DNA of 64,000 nucleotides from Terriglobales bacterium (GCA_025980765.1 JAICXB010000018.1:1155-65154), one strand, 5' to 3'; counted from the stretch's first letter, positions 7,998-45,151 are shown. Notes: a model not told the origin generated them from the letters alone. Translations and numbers: made by a program.

Positions 7998-10658
7998 TCA
8001 CTCAAATCGCAGCGCCGCCACCGGACTCACCCGAGTGGCACGTCTTGCCGGAATCCAAACAGCCACGAGTGCGACGGCGCTGAGCAACAGCAGGGTTGCA
8101 ATGAACGCCATTGGGTCCAACGCCTTCACTCCGAACAGGAAGCTGGCGAGGAAATGGGTCAGCCACAGAGCTCCGCCCACACCGATCGCAACGCCTATTG
8201 CAGCCAGAACCATACCCTGCCGGATCACCATGTTGCGGATCGTGGAAGCTTGTGCGCCCAGGGCCATGCGGATGCCAAGCTCCTGGGTGCGTTGCTGCAC
8301 GGAATAGCCCATCAGCCCATAGATGCCGATCGCTGCGACGAACAGCGCCGAAGCGCCAAAGATGACCAGAAGTAGCATGTTGAAACGCTGCCGCGAGGTA
8401 TTAAGCACGACGATTTCATCCATAGTGCGGACATGCGCAACGGGCAGGCCTCCACTGGCCTCGCGCAGCGCGACGGCAAGGGGCTTTACCAGAGGATGCG
8501 GGTCCACAGGACTGCGCACAATCCACATCAATGGCGCGATGCGCGAGTTAAGCGCTGTCACTTTATCCGGCATTTGCGCAATGGGGATGTACATCGCCGG
8601 AGATGGATCGCGATTCAGGCCATCACCGCGCATATCTCCAACAACGCCGACGATCTGCCGCGGCGGTTCAGCAAACACCGATCCCATATTCGCGCCGATC
8701 AACAAACGGTCATTTAGCGGATCGCCAGTGGGCCAGTATTTTCTGGCCATGGCTTGATTGATGATCACCACACCGGGGGCGGAGCCGTCGTCCTGCTCGG
8801 TAAAACTGCGACCGCGCAGAATCGGCACTTTGAACGCATCAAAGTAGCTCCACGAAATGGGCAGATAACCTGCGCCGCCGGAGTTAGGATCGTTGGTCTT
8901 CGGTCGACCAACGATGTCGAACGGCAGGCCAAAGCCGCCGTCCAGTGGCAGGCAGCAGGCAGCGGCCGCAGTTTCTACGCCGGGAATATTCTTCAGCCGC
9001 TCGGCGCCATCCCGGACAACCTGCGCAACGCTGGCGGTGTTTTGAAAACGCTCTCCACTGATCGACATTGCCATGGTCAGCACATTGTGAGTGTCGAAAC
9101 CAGGATCGACCGCCTGCAGCTTCAAGAAGGTGCGGATGAGCAGGGCAGCTCCAACAACCAGAACAAGAGCCAGCGCCACTTCACTGATCACAAGCAGCGA
9201 GCGCACTCTCCCGGTTCGGGAACCGACACCGGCCTGGCTGCTGCTCTCCTTAAGGGCCACAGCGAGGTTAACGCGCGAACTGCTAAGCGCAGGAAACAGA
9301 CCAAAGAAAATTCCCGTCAGTATGGAGACCGCAACAGTGAACAGCAGCACGTTGCCATCGAGATTCACTGCAGAACCGTGTGGCCCGATGCGGGGGATAC
9401 CCCCGGGGCTGATGGCCAGCAAAAGGCGAACTCCGACGAAACCGATGATCAGTCCCAGTAAGCCACCGACCAGCGATATGGCGAGGCTTTCTGTGAGCAG
9501 TTGGCGGATGATGTGGCCGCGTCCAGCGCCCAAAGCAGAACGTGTGGCGAGTTCCCTCTGCCGCGCCGTAGCGCGGATCAAGAGCAGGTTGGCCACATTG
9601 GCACAGGCGATGAGCAGGACAAACGTTACTGCGCCCAGCAGAACCAGAAGAGACAAGCGGCTGTCGCCGACCATAATTTCCTGCAGCGGCACCACCGCGA
9701 ATCCCGCCTTCGGTCCCATCGAACCGGGGTAGGTGTTGCGGAACTGGTCTGCCGCCAGCTTCAGCTCGGCATTCGCCATTGGCACCGTCACACCAGGTTT
9801 GAGCCGTGCCGCAACCTGGAAGTAATGGGCCATGTCCCGCGAATTGAGATTGAATTGATAAGGCAGCCAAAGGTCGGTAGGGGTCGCTGTAAAGAAGTCG
9901 CGGCCGATGATGCCAACCACGAGATAAGGCTGGCCGTCCAGTTGAATGTTGGTGCCGACGATGTTTGGATTGCCGCCCAAGCGACGCTTCCACAGGCCGT
10001 AGCTGAGCACGGTAACGCGACCGCCATTCGGGCTGTCTTCGGCAGCAGTGAAGGTTCGTCCTGCGAGAATGGGCGCGCCGAACAGACGAAAATAGTCGGC
10101 GGTGACGTGCACGCCCTCGAGCTGTTCCGGATCGTTGCCTCCAGTAAGGTTGAGTCCGGCGCCGGCTTGATCGTACCCGGCGACTGCCTCAAAGATCCCC
10201 GTCTGCCGATGCCAGATGTTGAACTTTGGCACGTTTGCGGCGGGGAACAATCCCTGCGGTCCGGTGTTTGCCAACATCACCAGAGACTGTGGATCGGGAT
10301 ACCTGAGCGGCTTCAGCAATACCGTGTTGATGACGGAGAAGACCGCGGTGTTCGCTCCAATCCCGACTGCAATCACCAGAATCGCAATGATTGCGAAGGT
10401 TGGCGATTTGGCAAGGGAGCGCAACGCGAAGCGAAAGTCGCGCCATGCGTCCTCAATCCAGGGAAGCGAACGGTATTCCCACACGCGTTCGCGTATGACC
10501 CGCGGATTGCCGAATTTCAGACGGGCGCGACGACGAGCTTCTTCCGGTGAGAGTCCTCGCGCGATATTTGCATCCACCTCGTGCGCAAGGTGCGCCTCAA
10601 TTTCGTCGGCGAGACGAGCATCTTTTTCGCTTCGCTGCGTGAAACGTCGGAATTTCAT
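7998..10658 (-). CDS. ADOP-family duplicated FtsX/MacB-type ABC transporter permease
   Basis: About 886 aa with two MacB-like periplasmic and FtsX TM modules. N-terminus MKFRRF..DEIEAHL is typical of this family. ATG at 10656-10658 lies 16 nt after the PadR stop. Confidence 0.85.
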   Translation of the reverse strand: MKFRRFTQRSEKDARLADEIEAHLAHEVDANIARGLSPEEARRRARLKFGNPRVIRERVWEYRSLPWIEDAWRDFRFALRSLAKSPTFAIIAILVIAVGIGANTAVFSVINTVLLKPLRYPDPQSLVMLANTGPQGLFPAANVPKFNIWHRQTGIFEAVAGYDQAGAGLNLTGGNDPEQLEGVHVTADYFRLFGAPILAGRTFTAAEDSPNGGRVTVLSYGLWKRRLGGNPNIVGTNIQLDGQPYLVVGIIGRDFFTATPTDLWLPYQFNLNSRDMAHYFQVAARLKPGVTVPMANAELKLAADQFRNTYPGSMGPKAGFAVVPLQEIMVGDSRLSLLVLLGAVTFVLLIACANVANLLLIRATARQRELATRSALGAGRGHIIRQLLTESLAISLVGGLLGLIIGFVGVRLLLAISPGGIPRIGPHGSAVNLDGNVLLFTVAVSILTGIFFGLFPALSSSRVNLAVALKESSSQAGVGSRTGRVRSLLVISEVALALVLVVGAALLIRTFLKLQAVDPGFDTHNVLTMAMSISGERFQNTASVAQVVRDGAERLKNIPGVETAAAACCLPLDGGFGLPFDIVGRPKTNDPNSGGAGYLPISWSYFDAFKVPILRGRSFTEQDDGSAPGVVIINQAMARKYWPTGDPLNDRLLIGANMGSVFAEPPRQIVGVVGDMRGDGLNRDPSPAMYIPIAQMPDKVTALNSRIAPLMWIVRSPVDPHPLVKPLAVALREASGGLPVAHVRTMDEIVVLNTSRQRFNMLLLVIFGASALFVAAIGIYGLMGYSVQQRTQELGIRMALGAQASTIRNMVIRQGMVLAAIGVAIGVGGALWLTHFLASFLFGVKALDPMAFIATLLLLSAVALVAVWIPARRATRVSPVAALRFE

Positions 10659-14011: not shown

Positions 14012-14112
14012 GCCGAGCTAATTCGGTAATTCCCTGTCCCTACGTGCGGGCGGCACGCCATCTCCTGAAACTCCGATGGCATCCACATGCTTTAGGCAGG
14101 GAGGTAAAGCGA

Positions 14113-14622
14113 ATGCCGGAAAAAGAGACTGTGGAACGTGCGCGGCAAGACGAACGCGAGGGAAAATCGCCAAGTACTCAGGCAGGCGAATTCGTTCGGG
14201 AAGAGATGCACCATATTCGTGAAGGCAAGCATGGCGCTCGCTCCACCAAGCAGGCCATTGCCATTGGGCTCTCAAAAGCGCGGCGCTCCGGTGTGAAGCT
14301 CGGCGCTCCCAAAAAAGGAAAAGCCAGCGCACAAACCCGCCAGAAAGCCCAGCGCGATCTTCGCAAAGGAAAGTCCGCTGGAAAAAAGAAGACCTCGGCG
14401 AGCCGCTCGCGGGCCACTTCGAAGGCGTTAAAGCGGGAAGGGCGCCAGGCGGCGTCGAAGAAGAATCTTGCGCGCCAGGCCCGGACTGCGGCCAGGACTC
14501 GCGGACACGCCGCTCGCCATCAAGCAGCGTTGAAGGCGGTAGGAACAAAAGGGAAGACCGGCTTGAAAAGAGCGGCGCAGAAAGCGGCGCGGACCCGCGC
14601 CAGCAACCGCCGTGCAGCATAG
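14113..14622 (+). CDS. small conserved N-terminal domain (resembles DUF6496) with a Lys/Arg/Ala-rich histone-H1-like tail
   Basis: ATG at 14113 follows GGGAGG. MPEKETVERARQDEREGKSPSTQAGEFVREEMHHIREGKHGARS is followed by about 110 aa of K/R/A-rich low-complexity sequence. Confidence 0.55.
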   Translation: MPEKETVERARQDEREGKSPSTQAGEFVREEMHHIREGKHGARSTKQAIAIGLSKARRSGVKLGAPKKGKASAQTRQKAQRDLRKGKSAGKKKTSASRSRATSKALKREGRQAASKKNLARQARTAARTRGHAARHQAALKAVGTKGKTGLKRAAQKAARTRASNRRAA

Positions 14623-14659
14623 ACCTGCCCTGGCGCGATAGTACAAAGGAGGCTTGGAT

Positions 14660-15007
14660 ATGGCGGATGATCTCAGGATTACGGTTGATGAAGTAAGAAG
14701 AAGGATGAAACACGGCGAAGATTTCGCATGGATTGACACGCGCAATCCGCAGGCCTGGGCACAATCGGACGTAATGGTGCCGGAAGCGCTTCGCGTTCCT
14801 GTGGAGAACTTTGAGGACCACCTCTATGACATTCCAAAAAACAAGCCGGTTGTCGCGTACTGCACTTGACCGAACGAAGGTTCAAGCGCCAGTTTGGCGC
14901 AAAAGCTTCGCGAGCGTGGCTACAAGAATGTCTGGGCGCTGAAGGGTGGCTTCGATGCCTGGCGCAATGCCGGGTTGCCGGTTGTTTCCAAACAGGAAGC
15001 CGCCTGA
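14660..15007 (+). CDS. single-domain rhodanese-like sulfurtransferase with an in-frame TGA (14867-14869), a candidate selenocysteine codon
   Basis: ATG at 14660 lies 8 nt after AAGGAGG. The ORF stops after VVAYCT, but the same frame continues as PNEGSSASLAQKLRERGYKNVWALKGGFDAWRNAGLPV to TGA 15005-15007, which completes the rhodanese fold. Confidence 0.65.
14875..14910 (+). promoter_or_regulatory. candidate bacterial SECIS-like hairpin
   Basis: Lower stem CGAAG 14875-14879 pairs with CTTCG 14906-14910. Upper stem GCGCCA 14886-14891 pairs with TGGCGC 14895-14900. The apical loop GUU begins 23 nt after the UGA. Confidence 0.4.
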
Positions 15008-15119
15008 GCACGCATCTGGAGAATTGATGTTCGAGGATCGCGAGAGAGTCCGCCTGGGGAAGCAGCGCACCCGAAGGTGGATGCTCTGTAGGGAGGGACC
15101 GCAGGAATTGCTCTGAAGT

Positions 15120-16786: not shown

Positions 16787-18478
16787 TCATTCGTGACCGA
16801 TCTTCACTGGCGCCGTGTTGTCCGAGCGGTCGGCTTCGGGAACGCTGCCATCATTGACCGATACCTCGGTGGGACGGCTCCCGACTTCAATTCTTGCGGC
16901 TGCCTTGCTCCTGGCCGGCACGCGCAGGCGGCTCATCACCTCCCCAGTGTCGGTCTGTACCAGAATGGGAACTTCCGCCGAGGCGCTTCCGCTGTTCTCG
17001 ATCGTCGCTGAAACCAGGTAGATGCCCTGCAGGCTGGGGCGCGCGTAGCCGTTGGTGATGGTGAACTCGGGCAAGCCTCGGTCCTGATACACCCAATCGT
17101 CGAAGAACCATTCCAGGTCTTTGTGCGAGGTCTTCTCCAACAGACGCTGCATGTATGAGGCTTCTTTGTCCGCCGCGGGATCATATTGCTGCAGCCCGTC
17201 GAGTAGGGCGCGCTCGCCAACGATCTCGCGCAGCATCCACCAGACGTACATCGCCTTGGTGCGATAAAAGACTTCATTCGTGGTGTTGATCAGGCTGTTG
17301 CTCTTGACCGATTCGGGACTTCCTGAATCCGCCAGCGCCAGCGGTAAGAGTCTTTGTTGCATGAAGTCGATGGCCGCGGCGCGCCGGTCTTGCCGCTCGC
17401 GCATCAGAACTTGCGCAAAGTGCGCCGCGCCTTCGTAAATCCAGGCGCGCGGAGACCAAAGCGTCGCATGCGCAAACTCGTAGGCGAGCGTCAGTTGCAG
17501 GAATTTGGTGTCGATGGTTTTTAGCGGCAGTAACAAAATCCCATCGCCATCGAAGGTAATGTCGCTGGCCTCGGGCAAATCCACCAGCGTTACGCGTCGA
17601 TGCTGTCTTCCGCCTAGTGTGGGCTCAGTTTCCGTAACCACTCGAGCATAGTCGGCGGCAGCATCGGCTGCAGCAGGGAAGTACGCCAGGCTCAACGATG
17701 CGGCGGTGGTTGTCTTGTAGTTGCCGGCGACCAGCACGGGCCCGGCGATGCCGATGTGAGGCCAGTCGAGTCTCACTCCAGCCTCGCCCAACGCCTGCGG
17801 CGCGGATTCGGAGTTGCTGAAAAGAGTCACACCGGAGTCGCCGGTTACCTCCAGTTTCATGCTGGAGAGAGAGTGCCGAACCTGCCACGCGCCGGTAAGC
17901 TCAAAGACGCGGTTGGCATCTCCAAGCACGGCCGGTTCAATCGAGACTGGAAACCAGATCACGTGACCAACGCCACGCAAGCAGGTAAACGTCGGCGTAA
18001 TGCGGTCATAATCAGTACTGACCCGTACCCCCAGCGGCACGCCGAGCTGCGCCAGGCGCGTCGTGTCGAGCGAGACGGTGCCGCTGTAGCCCACCTCTAC
18101 GTCAATTGAGCTTCCACTTGGAATTGGAGCCAACAGCGTCATCAACGCCTCTTGCACGTATCCGGTGTGATCAATGTCAGAACGAAGCCGAGTGTTCGTG
18201 AATCTCAGCGGCTCGCCACGCTCGCGGATCGCTGCCCAGTTCAACGAGGATGAGACTTGTAATGACAATTGCCGCTGCGGCTGCGGCGAGTCGTTGCGCA
18301 ATTGCATATGGCCGCGCACCGATAGGGATTCCTCCTGAGCGCCGATGCGCACGTTGAGGTCCCAGTTTGTGATGGTGAATGCGCCACGATCGAAGGAGGG
18401 AACACTTGTTGGCTGCTGTGCCCAAAATGAAACCGGCAGAAACAAGAGTATCGGAACGAGACGCAGCCAAAGTCTCAC
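16787..18478 (-). CDS. secreted M1-peptidase-like protein with a degenerate zinc motif (YEFAH)
   Basis: YEFAHATLWSPRAWIYEGAAHF aligns to HExxH-x18-E of the M1 family. The GTG start at 18476-18478 overlaps the rlmB stop (GTGA). It is followed by the signal-like VRLWLRLVPILLFLPVSFWAQQ. Confidence 0.7.
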   Translation of the reverse strand: MRLWLRLVPILLFLPVSFWAQQPTSVPSFDRGAFTITNWDLNVRIGAQEESLSVRGHMQLRNDSPQPQRQLSLQVSSSLNWAAIRERGEPLRFTNTRLRSDIDHTGYVQEALMTLLAPIPSGSSIDVEVGYSGTVSLDTTRLAQLGVPLGVRVSTDYDRITPTFTCLRGVGHVIWFPVSIEPAVLGDANRVFELTGAWQVRHSLSSMKLEVTGDSGVTLFSNSESAPQALGEAGVRLDWPHIGIAGPVLVAGNYKTTTAASLSLAYFPAAADAAADYARVVTETEPTLGGRQHRRVTLVDLPEASDITFDGDGILLLPLKTIDTKFLQLTLAYEFAHATLWSPRAWIYEGAAHFAQVLMRERQDRRAAAIDFMQQRLLPLALADSGSPESVKSNSLINTTNEVFYRTKAMYVWWMLREIVGERALLDGLQQYDPAADKEASYMQRLLEKTSHKDLEWFFDDWVYQDRGLPEFTITNGYARPSLQGIYLVSATIENSGSASAEVPILVQTDTGEVMSRLRVPARSKAAARIEVGSRPTEVSVNDGSVPEADRSDNTAPVKIGHE

Positions 18479-19254
18479 GATCCGAGCCCCTTTTGCCTGG
18501 GCGTTTTGAATGCTGGCTGTACGGTTGCCGAGCGGCGTTGGCGAGCGATCTCGTACATAACCACACCGCCGGCCACAGAGACGTTCAAGGAAGACACGCC
18601 TCCCAACATCGGGATCGAGACCAGGTAATCGCATTTCTTGCGCACCAGCTCATGCAGCCCATGCCCCTCCGCTCCCAGGGCAACTGCGCAATTCATTCGA
18701 TAGTCAACCTGATCGTAGCTCTGTTTGCCGCGCTCATCGAGACCAACGATCCAGACGCCCTGTTCCTTCAGGTCGTCCAGAGTGCGGGCGAGGTTCACTA
18801 CGCGCGCGATCCTGACGTGCTCGGTTGCGCCGGCCGAGATCTTCGCCACGGTTGCGTTCACAGCCGCGGCCCGCCGTTCCGGGATGATGATGCCATCCAC
18901 GCCCGCGCCGTCGGCAGTGCGAATGAGAGCGCCCAGATTGTGCGGATCTTCAATGCCGTCGAGCGCCAGCAGCAACAGGTGCTCGCCCTTTTTGTGCGCG
19001 ACGAGTTCTTCTACTTCCGAGTAGTTCTTGCCCGCAACCACCGCTACTGCGCCTTGATGAGACTTGCTGCGCGCCAAACGATCGAGCTGTTCGCGCGTGA
19101 CAAATCGCACCGAAACGCCCTGCTTGCGAGCAAGGTCGATCACGGATTGCAGCCGCTGGTCATGGCGCTCGCGGGCGACTTCCACGTGATCAAGCGATCG
19201 GTTGCGCGCGCGCAGCGCCTCCTCCACCGCGTGGATTCCAAAGAGAACGTCCAT
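18475..19254 (-). CDS. rlmB: TrmH-family 23S rRNA (guanosine-2'-O)-methyltransferase
   Basis: 259 aa with SpoU/TrmH motifs (ALDGIEDPHNLGALIRTA, SLNVSVAGGVVMYE). Confidence 0.8.
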   Translation of the reverse strand: MDVLFGIHAVEEALRARNRSLDHVEVARERHDQRLQSVIDLARKQGVSVRFVTREQLDRLARSKSHQGAVAVVAGKNYSEVEELVAHKKGEHLLLLALDGIEDPHNLGALIRTADGAGVDGIIIPERRAAAVNATVAKISAGATEHVRIARVVNLARTLDDLKEQGVWIVGLDERGKQSYDQVDYRMNCAVALGAEGHGLHELVRKKCDYLVSIPMLGGVSSLNVSVAGGVVMYEIARQRRSATVQPAFKTPRQKGLGS

Positions 19255-38583: not shown

Positions 38584-39267
38584 GTGAGATCCCGAACAAA
38601 GAAAGCCGACAGCCAGTTTGGCTGTCGTGGCGATTTGCCAAAACCGGCCTTCGCCGACGGCTCAGGTGAAGCCGCGCTCGCGCATTTGCGCGCGGCTGAT
38701 CCCGTGCTTGCTGCTGTCATCGATCGTGTCGGCGCCTACGCCATGCAATATCACGAACCCACCTTCCGCGCGCTGGTGCGCTCAATCGTCTTTCAGCAAC
38801 TCCATGGTTCGGCCGCGCGCGCGATCTTCGACCGCCTGCTGAAGAAAGCCGGAGGAGAGATTACTCCAGATTCGATTCTGAAGCTGCGCCCTGCGCAAAT
38901 GCGCTCTCTCGGACTCTCCAAGCAAAAGCTCACTTACATCCGCGATCTTGCCCGCAAGACCCGCGACGGAGTCGTCGAATTCGGACGATTTCCGCGGATG
39001 TCGGATGAAGAAGTCATCGCCGAACTGACGCAGGTGAAAGGTATCGGCGAGTGGACCGCGCACATGTTTCTGATGTTTGCCTTGCGCCGCCCGAACATCC
39101 TGCCCACCGGCGACTTTGGGGTGCGCAACGCGATGCGAAAAGCGTATGGAATGAAGGTCATGCCGAAACCGGTCACCATGAAGCGTATGGCGAAGAACTG
39201 GCATCCCTACTGCTCGGTTGCAAGCTGGTATATGTGGCGTTCACTAGACGTGCCGGTGGAGCTGTGA
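38584..39267 (+). CDS. HhH-GPD family DNA-3-methyladenine glycosylase II
   Basis: 227 aa. HhH-GPD core (QQLHGSAARAIFDRL, LTQVKGIGEWTAHMFLMFAL, PTGDFGV). GTG start. Confidence 0.8.
   Translation: MRSRTKKADSQFGCRGDLPKPAFADGSGEAALAHLRAADPVLAAVIDRVGAYAMQYHEPTFRALVRSIVFQQLHGSAARAIFDRLLKKAGGEITPDSILKLRPAQMRSLGLSKQKLTYIRDLARKTRDGVVEFGRFPRMSDEEVIAELTQVKGIGEWTAHMFLMFALRRPNILPTGDFGVRNAMRKAYGMKVMPKPVTMKRMAKNWHPYCSVASWYMWRSLDVPVEL

Positions 39268-45074: not shown

Positions 45075-45151
<77 letters not shown>

Follow-up and report, generated by a model that had tools for sequence, protein, structure and literature searches.

A predicted leaderless member of the CxU selenocysteine-rhodanese family in a Terriglobales bacterium, with a SECIS-like hairpin embedded in its coding sequence

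Rhodanese-type proteins with a selenocysteine (Sec) placed two residues after a cysteine form a known, computationally predicted selenoprotein family. They are listed in published selenoproteome catalogues (PMC13188914, PMC9312934), the second of which names them "COG0607 form 2 (CxU)", and their first report appears to date from 2005, a review crediting Zhang & Gladyshev 2005 (bSECISearch). The representative TKB26178.1 (supplement of PMC12013277) reads ...IVLYCAUPNEYTSARLAQKLIAVGYQNVYALKGGWNEW. The literature that we found reports no experimental selenium incorporation for any CxU family member, and we found no mention of a Terriglobia or soil distribution of the family in the selenoproteome literature. 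Other Sec-rhodaneses (form 1, UxxS, WP_010941598.1; form 2/4, UxxG, MBM9537886.1; TsoB, UxxxxU, NF045694) likewise carry Sec in the rhodanese loop but differ in having no Cys at position -2 (Y-U-A-I-G-G-R-S) or in being multidomain proteins. In fold and size, the thiosulfate sulfurtransferases of the Escherichia coli GlpE/PspE type (PDB 1GMX) are also close. As for the organisms concerned, Acidobacteria were credited with selenoproteins already in 2006 (PMC1794560), and three selenoproteins are reported in the Terriglobia isolate Occallatibacter riparius (PMC12013277).

The gene described here lies on the + strand of a 64,000-nucleotide stretch of DNA from a Terriglobales bacterium (GCA_025980765.1 JAICXB010000018.1:1155-65154), hereafter the window, and had been singled out in an earlier note, made from the sequence alone, as a rhodanese gene with an in-frame TGA in its active-site loop and a SECIS-like hairpin behind it. 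The ORF, the TGA, the 45-codon frame and the hairpin-arm coordinates of that note all agree with the sequence. The coding sequence spans 14660..15007 (115 codons and a stop) and would specify a one-domain rhodanese in which codon 70 is read as Sec. There are two candidate starts, TTG 14654 and ATG 14660; a Shine-Dalgarno-like AGGAGG (14647..14652, read from the sequence) stands 7 nt 5' of the ATG, which is therefore the likely start and preferred over the TTG. Furthermore, an in-frame stop sits 6 codons 5' of this ATG, which leaves the protein without an N-terminal extension or signal peptide. The ORF reads ...KPVVAYCT, with Cys68, the C of the C-x-U motif, encoded by TGC (14861..14863) and Thr69 by ACT (14864-66), and then meets the TGA of codon 70 (14867..14869), which is conserved in the orthologs. 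Beyond it a further 45 codons (PNEGSSASLAQKLRERGYKNVWALKGGFDAWRNAGLPVVSKQEAA) follow in frame up to the terminal TGA (15005..15007), a position at which the orthologs interchange TAG, TGA and TAA. We consider it very probable that the product of 14660-15007 is a rhodanese-type (seleno)protein of 115 residues, with one domain and no leader, for whose synthesis UGA70 is decoded as Sec.

When the TGA is read through, the product gives a complete match to the Rhodanese domain of Pfam (PF00581, profile 1-101/102, E = 1.3e-14, 54.9 bits vs a gathering cutoff of 22.2), and a complete match is obtained only in this way. In the AlphaFold model of a 68%-identical, full-length Cys-form homolog (mean pLDDT 85.5, pTM 0.80, TM 0.7-0.78 to the solved rhodaneses 3tp9, 6mxv and 3gk5), the residues beyond position 70 form a 13-residue helix, a strand and the GGxxAW helix, so that the downstream stretch does complete a rhodanese fold, as had been proposed, and a product of 69 residues misses approximately 40% of it.

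The best NCBIfam match of the read-through product is NF041203, "rhodanese_LYCAU, rhodanese-related (seleno)protein" (100 bits, E = 7e-29), the next-best family reaching 48 bits. The match spans profile positions 20-126 and leaves unmatched positions 1-19, which hold a signal/TM segment in the representative. Scored with C or X placed at position 70, the window protein obtains 100 and 93 bits, respectively, and so stays below the curated equivalog cutoff of 115 bits. The cutoff is straddled by the clade of Sec-type orthologs (hereafter the Sec clade), five of which score 96-119 with one passing (118.9), and the scores of five Cys forms lie at 94-101. Residues 69/70 fall on profile positions 84/85, and in a BLASTP alignment with TKB26178.1 (36% identity over 97 residues) position 70 falls on U109 with no local gap. 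Both proteins consist of a single rhodanese domain, with L-Y-C-A-U-P-N-E in the representative and A-Y-C-T-U-P-N-E in the window protein, and share the C-terminal pattern ...AQKL...GY.NV.ALKGG...W; Cys forms belong to this family too. Unlike the window protein, TKB26178.1 carries an N-terminal hydrophobic leader. The window gene is, as judged from its predicted product, a leaderless and slightly sub-threshold Terriglobia member of this computationally predicted selenoprotein family, and the statement in the earlier note that Sec-rhodaneses appear in selenoproteome surveys is borne out down to the exact CxU motif (PMC13188914, PMC9312934, NCBIfam NF041203). The likeness to other groups is lower, with 46 bits for the GlpE family (NF001195) and only 26 bits for TsoB (NF045694).

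The conservation of the TGA was followed in 83 homologous loci, namely three from Terriglobia and Sulfotelmatobacter genomes and the 80 best out of over 445 matches in soil metagenomes, the query of the genome-contig search being the 69-residue N-terminal part of the rhodanese. While these loci encode proteins with 62-96% identity to the window product, codon 70 is TGA in 84 of the 84 sequences (window included) and never TAA or TAG, and in all 83 loci it is followed by an open, conserved frame with a common end, two Ala codons and a stop. The orthologs are not assembly copies of one sequence, as they amount to 70 distinct coding sequences with a mean pS of about 0.7. In this set codon 70 is TGA in 70 of 70, and the terminal stop varies (TAG in 34, TGA in 24, TAA in 12). 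Mean pN/pS is 0.26 over codons 1-69 and 0.23 over codons 71-115, and rises to 0.97 over the 19 codons past the terminal stop. The orthologs thus bear out the earlier expectation of a conserved TGA followed by 45 codons under purifying selection and, as detailed below, by a conserved upper hairpin.

These data bear directly on the reading of the locus as a nonsense pseudogene, that is, a rhodanese gene inactivated by the TGA with its downstream codons decaying. Gene callers do stop at the TGA, as had been anticipated: a protein search returned 124 relatives and, among the 120 clusters listed, 89 are exactly 69 residues long and end in ...YCT, including GenBank MAG proteins of Candidatus Angelobacter and Sulfotelmatobacter. 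Moreover, searches of the window and the 83 loci (689 kb) found neither SelA, SelB and SelD (tblastn with E. coli queries) nor a tRNA-Sec among the 10 tRNAs detected by ARAGORN. A decaying remnant would, however, hardly keep its TGA, its frame and its end point across 84 sequences of such divergence, nor hold pN/pS downstream of the TGA as low as upstream of it and far below the value past the real stop. Purifying selection on codons 71-115 means that they are read by the ribosome and kept for the protein they specify. This excludes a pseudogene, and we accord this reading practically no probability. The only tRNA gene of the window itself is a tRNA-Met (CAT) at 45075-45151 (-).

Indirect support for Sec decoding in this group comes from a Sulfotelmatobacter contig (L002). 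The three Occallatibacter riparius selenoproteins were used as probes on the related loci, and L002 was found to carry, besides a Sec-rhodanese ortholog at 10001, a gene for the formate dehydrogenase alpha subunit FdhA (L002:810-4047, - strand) with a TGA at + coordinate 3435. This TGA occupies the canonical Sec site, between ...SNQARI and HSSTVPGLG..., the frame being open for 204 codons ahead of it and 874 behind it, and is followed by a hairpin (GUGCCC-GGUCU-GGGCAC) whose loop starts at +21. A putative Sec-FdhA on the same contig, together with the Sec trait already documented in Terriglobia, indirectly supports the decoding proposed for the rhodanese.

A further reading is that the TGA is translated as Trp, Gly or Cys, through reassignment of the genetic code or through near-cognate read-through independent of any SECIS. 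It draws on the fact that some database entries translate codon 70 as W, and that the assignment of Sec is itself deduced from sequence. The entry examined at the DNA level, P0002 (L087:335-682), nevertheless has TGA at this codon, and its deposited protein is not obtained under table 11, which points to an alternative code table having been applied to a short contig. TGA is furthermore the commonest ordinary stop of the window, closing 9 of the 18 longest ORFs and the rhodanese gene itself, as it does 24 of the 70 orthologs; since it serves as an ordinary stop, code reassignment is excluded. In the diverged homologs the only true sense codons at the site are Cys codons, and simple read-through has no use for a hairpin that is constrained at the nucleotide level and placed at SECIS distance. 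Translation of codon 70 as a standard amino acid is thus very improbable, and decoding as Sec remains our preferred reading. At the protein level, the JGI gene calls of P0003, P0004 and P0006 also give Trp at codon 70.

The Cys codons just mentioned come from four diverged forms (P0007, P0009, P0047 and P0059; 43-53% identical to the window protein), which have TGT or TGC at the site in a C-T-C-P-N/H-E context, so that the Cys/Sec pair that the earlier note expected from related rhodaneses is indeed found among them. Cys68 is near-invariant, being present in at least 90% of the homolog alignment rows. Three close homologs show another codon, TGC in P0001 (L086:564-917), TCA in P0005 (L088:163-510) and GGA in P0020 (L093:73-417). 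Each is one base away from TGA and lies on a singleton contig, one of them at 0.78x coverage. All three keep the stem of the hairpin; the loop is kept in the TGC and GGA forms, and its G is replaced by A in P0005. These single-base differences on singleton contigs with a retained stem suggest very recent conversions or sequencing errors, and the three homologs were not taken as evidence against Sec.

Bacterial SECIS elements are recognised by SelB through an apical GU, and the position of the window loop relative to the UGA would fall within the range that the earlier note gives for bacterial SECIS models. Downstream of UGA70, the candidate SECIS core is a 6-bp stem (14886..14900, + strand) formed by GCGCCA 14886-91 and UGGCGC 14895-900 and closed by a GUU loop (14892-94). 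The stem begins 16 nt past the UGA, and its loop opens with a G at the 23rd nt downstream of that codon, in keeping with the G-first apical loop described in the earlier note. A lower stem, CGAAG 14875-79 with CTTCG 14906-10, may flank this core (14875..14910, + strand) as a weak or accessory element. In a stretch this rich in GC, the folding energy of the window hairpin (MFE -17.2 kcal/mol vs -16.6 +/- 2.9 for shuffles, z = -0.2) makes a single-sequence hairpin no evidence by itself, and the case rests on comparative data.

These comparative data concern 60 distinct orthologous sequences, in all of which the upper stem is paired (60/60, 100% of cells). At the pair 14888/14898, 47 sequences have G-C, 9 have G-U and 4 have A-U, and none has A-C. 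On the protein side this pair appears as Ala...Ala, Ala...Val or Thr...Val and never as Thr...Ala, an amino-acid covariation that arises because the bases pair. The loop is GUU, with GUC in few orthologs. Third-codon-position entropy is 0 at codons 76-80 (AGC GCC AGT TTG GCG), which are the upper stem and loop; the other zero-entropy third positions are confined to the Met, Trp and Sec (TGA) codons. The codon of Ser75 varies freely as TCN, but AGC is the sole codon of Ser76 and AGT that of Ser78. The RNAalifold consensus of the 60 sequences consists of the upper stem alone. In the lower stem, 87% of cells pair, every one of its base pairs is broken in some cells and the double changes number two; it is weakly supported, as an accessory at best. 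The two-tier hairpin of the earlier note is hence upheld in its upper tier, by full pairing, a compensatory pair and synonymous suppression, and given up in its lower one, which shows no meaningful compensation. The covariance-model check that the same note had suggested did not bear the hairpin out: Rfam, including its curated SECIS models, gave no match for the window at gathering thresholds or for 14800-14960 at E <= 10.

The diverged Cys forms provide a control for the peptide that the stem encodes. The hairpin is lost in three of the four, P0007 retaining a degenerate 5-bp stem, and the invariant SASLA of the Sec clade is replaced by SAHVS, STRAA, SMRVA and SAGVA. Since SASLA is not kept in Cys forms without the hairpin, its conservation in the Sec clade is imposed by the RNA. 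The putative SECIS is embedded in the coding sequence, where the demands of the RNA fix the peptide S-A-S-L-A as well as the synonymous sites.

A conserved hairpin and a short ORF whose product is formally possible could also speak for regulated termination, with a functional 69-residue fragment and the hairpin serving as a pausing, attenuation or mRNA-stability element. Such a fragment would, however, be without the post-loop helix, the last strand and the GGxxAW end, while the downstream codons are under purifying selection at the amino-acid level in the same frame, and the family representative TKB26178.1 is annotated with U at the site. We regard regulated termination as extremely improbable and retain Sec insertion directed by the hairpin as the favoured reading. 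In comparison with the fdhF-type SECIS (E. coli fdhF and the FdhA gene of L002), the window element is likewise a stem-loop within the CDS a short way past the UGA; its apical stem is rich in GC and its apical loop contains G-U, the loop start being +25 in the window and +21 in L002 FdhA. It differs by a loop of only 3 nt (GUU/GUC), by having no bulged U in the conserved core, by a lower helix that is not reliably conserved in the orthologs of the window gene and by matching no Rfam model.

The surroundings of the rhodanese gene were also considered. Its neighbours encode a DUF6496 protein, a receiver-like domain protein, a thiolase, an ECF sigma factor and a MacB-type permease, and they are kept beside the orthologs only in the near-identical locus L004. 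As the neighbours are not conserved, the rhodanese gene appears to stand alone, and nothing in its surroundings hints at what it does. The gene directly upstream (14044-14622, +) encodes a Lys/Arg/Ala-rich protein of 192 residues, conserved only in L004, with a weak DUF6496 match (25.9 bits vs a cutoff of 24). Further downstream, a 615-codon ORF at 16787-18634 (-), 97% identical in L004, contains an HExxH-like segment (YEFAHATLW) and has no Pfam match at E <= 0.001. Two antisense ORFs overlap the rhodanese gene, 14018-14821 (-) and 14679-15011 (-), of 267 and 110 residues, with tblastn matches in 26 and 74 loci, respectively; they were rejected as shadow ORFs whose conservation is inherited from the sense-strand rhodanese gene.

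Scans of the window for further selenoprotein genes gave no accepted candidate. A scan by codon usage was not discriminative, the rhodanese itself scoring 0.13-0.17, and its other candidates look like antisense shadow ORFs. A hairpin-based scan returned one other site, TGA 38585 followed by an 8-bp hairpin (CGACAGCC-AGTTT-GGCTGTCG), whose open frame is an off-frame reading of the gene 38584-39267 (+) at a GTGA start/stop overlap; it was discarded. The 227-residue product of this gene is, by eye, presumably related to HhH-GPD DNA glycosylases.

The position of Sec70 in the rhodanese fold was examined from both sides of the loop. From the C-terminal side, Sec70 lies 31 residues before W101 of GGxxAW, which is the spacing of the catalytic Cys65 in E. 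coli GlpE, the W belonging to GGF(D/E)AW in this pair, and U-P-N-E-G-S of the window protein aligns gap-free with C65-Y-H-G-N-S of GlpE. The spacing to W also equals, without gaps, that of U in two published Sec-rhodaneses, among them MBM9537886.1 with U 31 residues ahead of the W of GGxxAW. From the N-terminal side, on the other hand, KPVVAYC matches the usual strand-Cys, and in the model the central beta-strand ends at Tyr, Cys68 is the first loop residue and the helix begins at Glu73. The PDB alignments are split, two gapped ones placing Cys68 at the canonical Cys. Taken together, the C-terminal spacing and the strand boundary place both Cys68 and Sec70 in the five-residue active-site loop. 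We favour Sec70 as the primary nucleophile and Cys68 as its resolving partner in a selenenyl-sulfide, although the strand boundary and the gapped PDB alignments favour Cys68. Relative to GlpE, the window protein would thus have Sec in place of Cys and an additional invariant Cys two residues upstream, which makes a CxU redox-type motif, and its strand side is offset by two residues.

In the decoding that we propose, the hairpin GCGCCA-GUU-UGGCGC, itself coding for Ser-Ala-Ser-Leu-Ala, would bind SelB carrying Sec-tRNA(Sec) as the ribosome nears the UGA, and SelB would bring the Sec-tRNA(Sec) to the A site, competing there with release factor 2. In the product, the active-site loop would then read C68-T69-U70-P-N-E, with selenium presumably incorporated at position 70, and Cys68, two residues before Sec70, could resolve a selenenyl-sulfide. 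The canonical catalytic spacing of Sec70 together with Cys68 suggests a chemistry with an Se-S intermediate, in which sulfane sulfur (or selenium) would probably be transferred or reduced.

A more far-reaching idea is that the Terriglobia clade forms a distinct leaderless, and hence cytoplasmic, subfamily of CxU Sec-rhodaneses, spread widely among soil Acidobacteriota (with over 445 metagenome matches), in which a Sec70 nucleophile and a Cys68 selenenyl-sulfide switch serve a role unlike that of the classical thiosulfate sulfurtransferases. We consider this speculative and rather unlikely. Were it true, the role might be, for example, the carrying or reduction of persulfide or selenium in the cytoplasm, and the curated NF041203 model and NCBI annotation would be missing most of the clade.

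The window gene appears, on the comparative evidence given above, to be a genuine selenoprotein gene, and it is not a new one: its family has been catalogued since 2005 and is held in NCBIfam, and no new mechanism is involved. Its value lies first in annotation, as both the gene and the majority of its relatives stand in the databases as "rhodanese-like" fragments of 69 residues. With clade scores of 96-119 against a cutoff of 115 bits, most of the Terriglobia clade is excluded from NF041203, and a selenoprotein apparently common in soil Acidobacteriota would be regained by lowering the cutoff or by adding a sibling model. The locus furthermore offers a textbook-quality example of a coding-embedded SECIS. 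Finally, the family is biochemically uncharacterised, and a C-x-U protein of 115 residues would be an easy target for studying the part that Sec plays in rhodanese chemistry.
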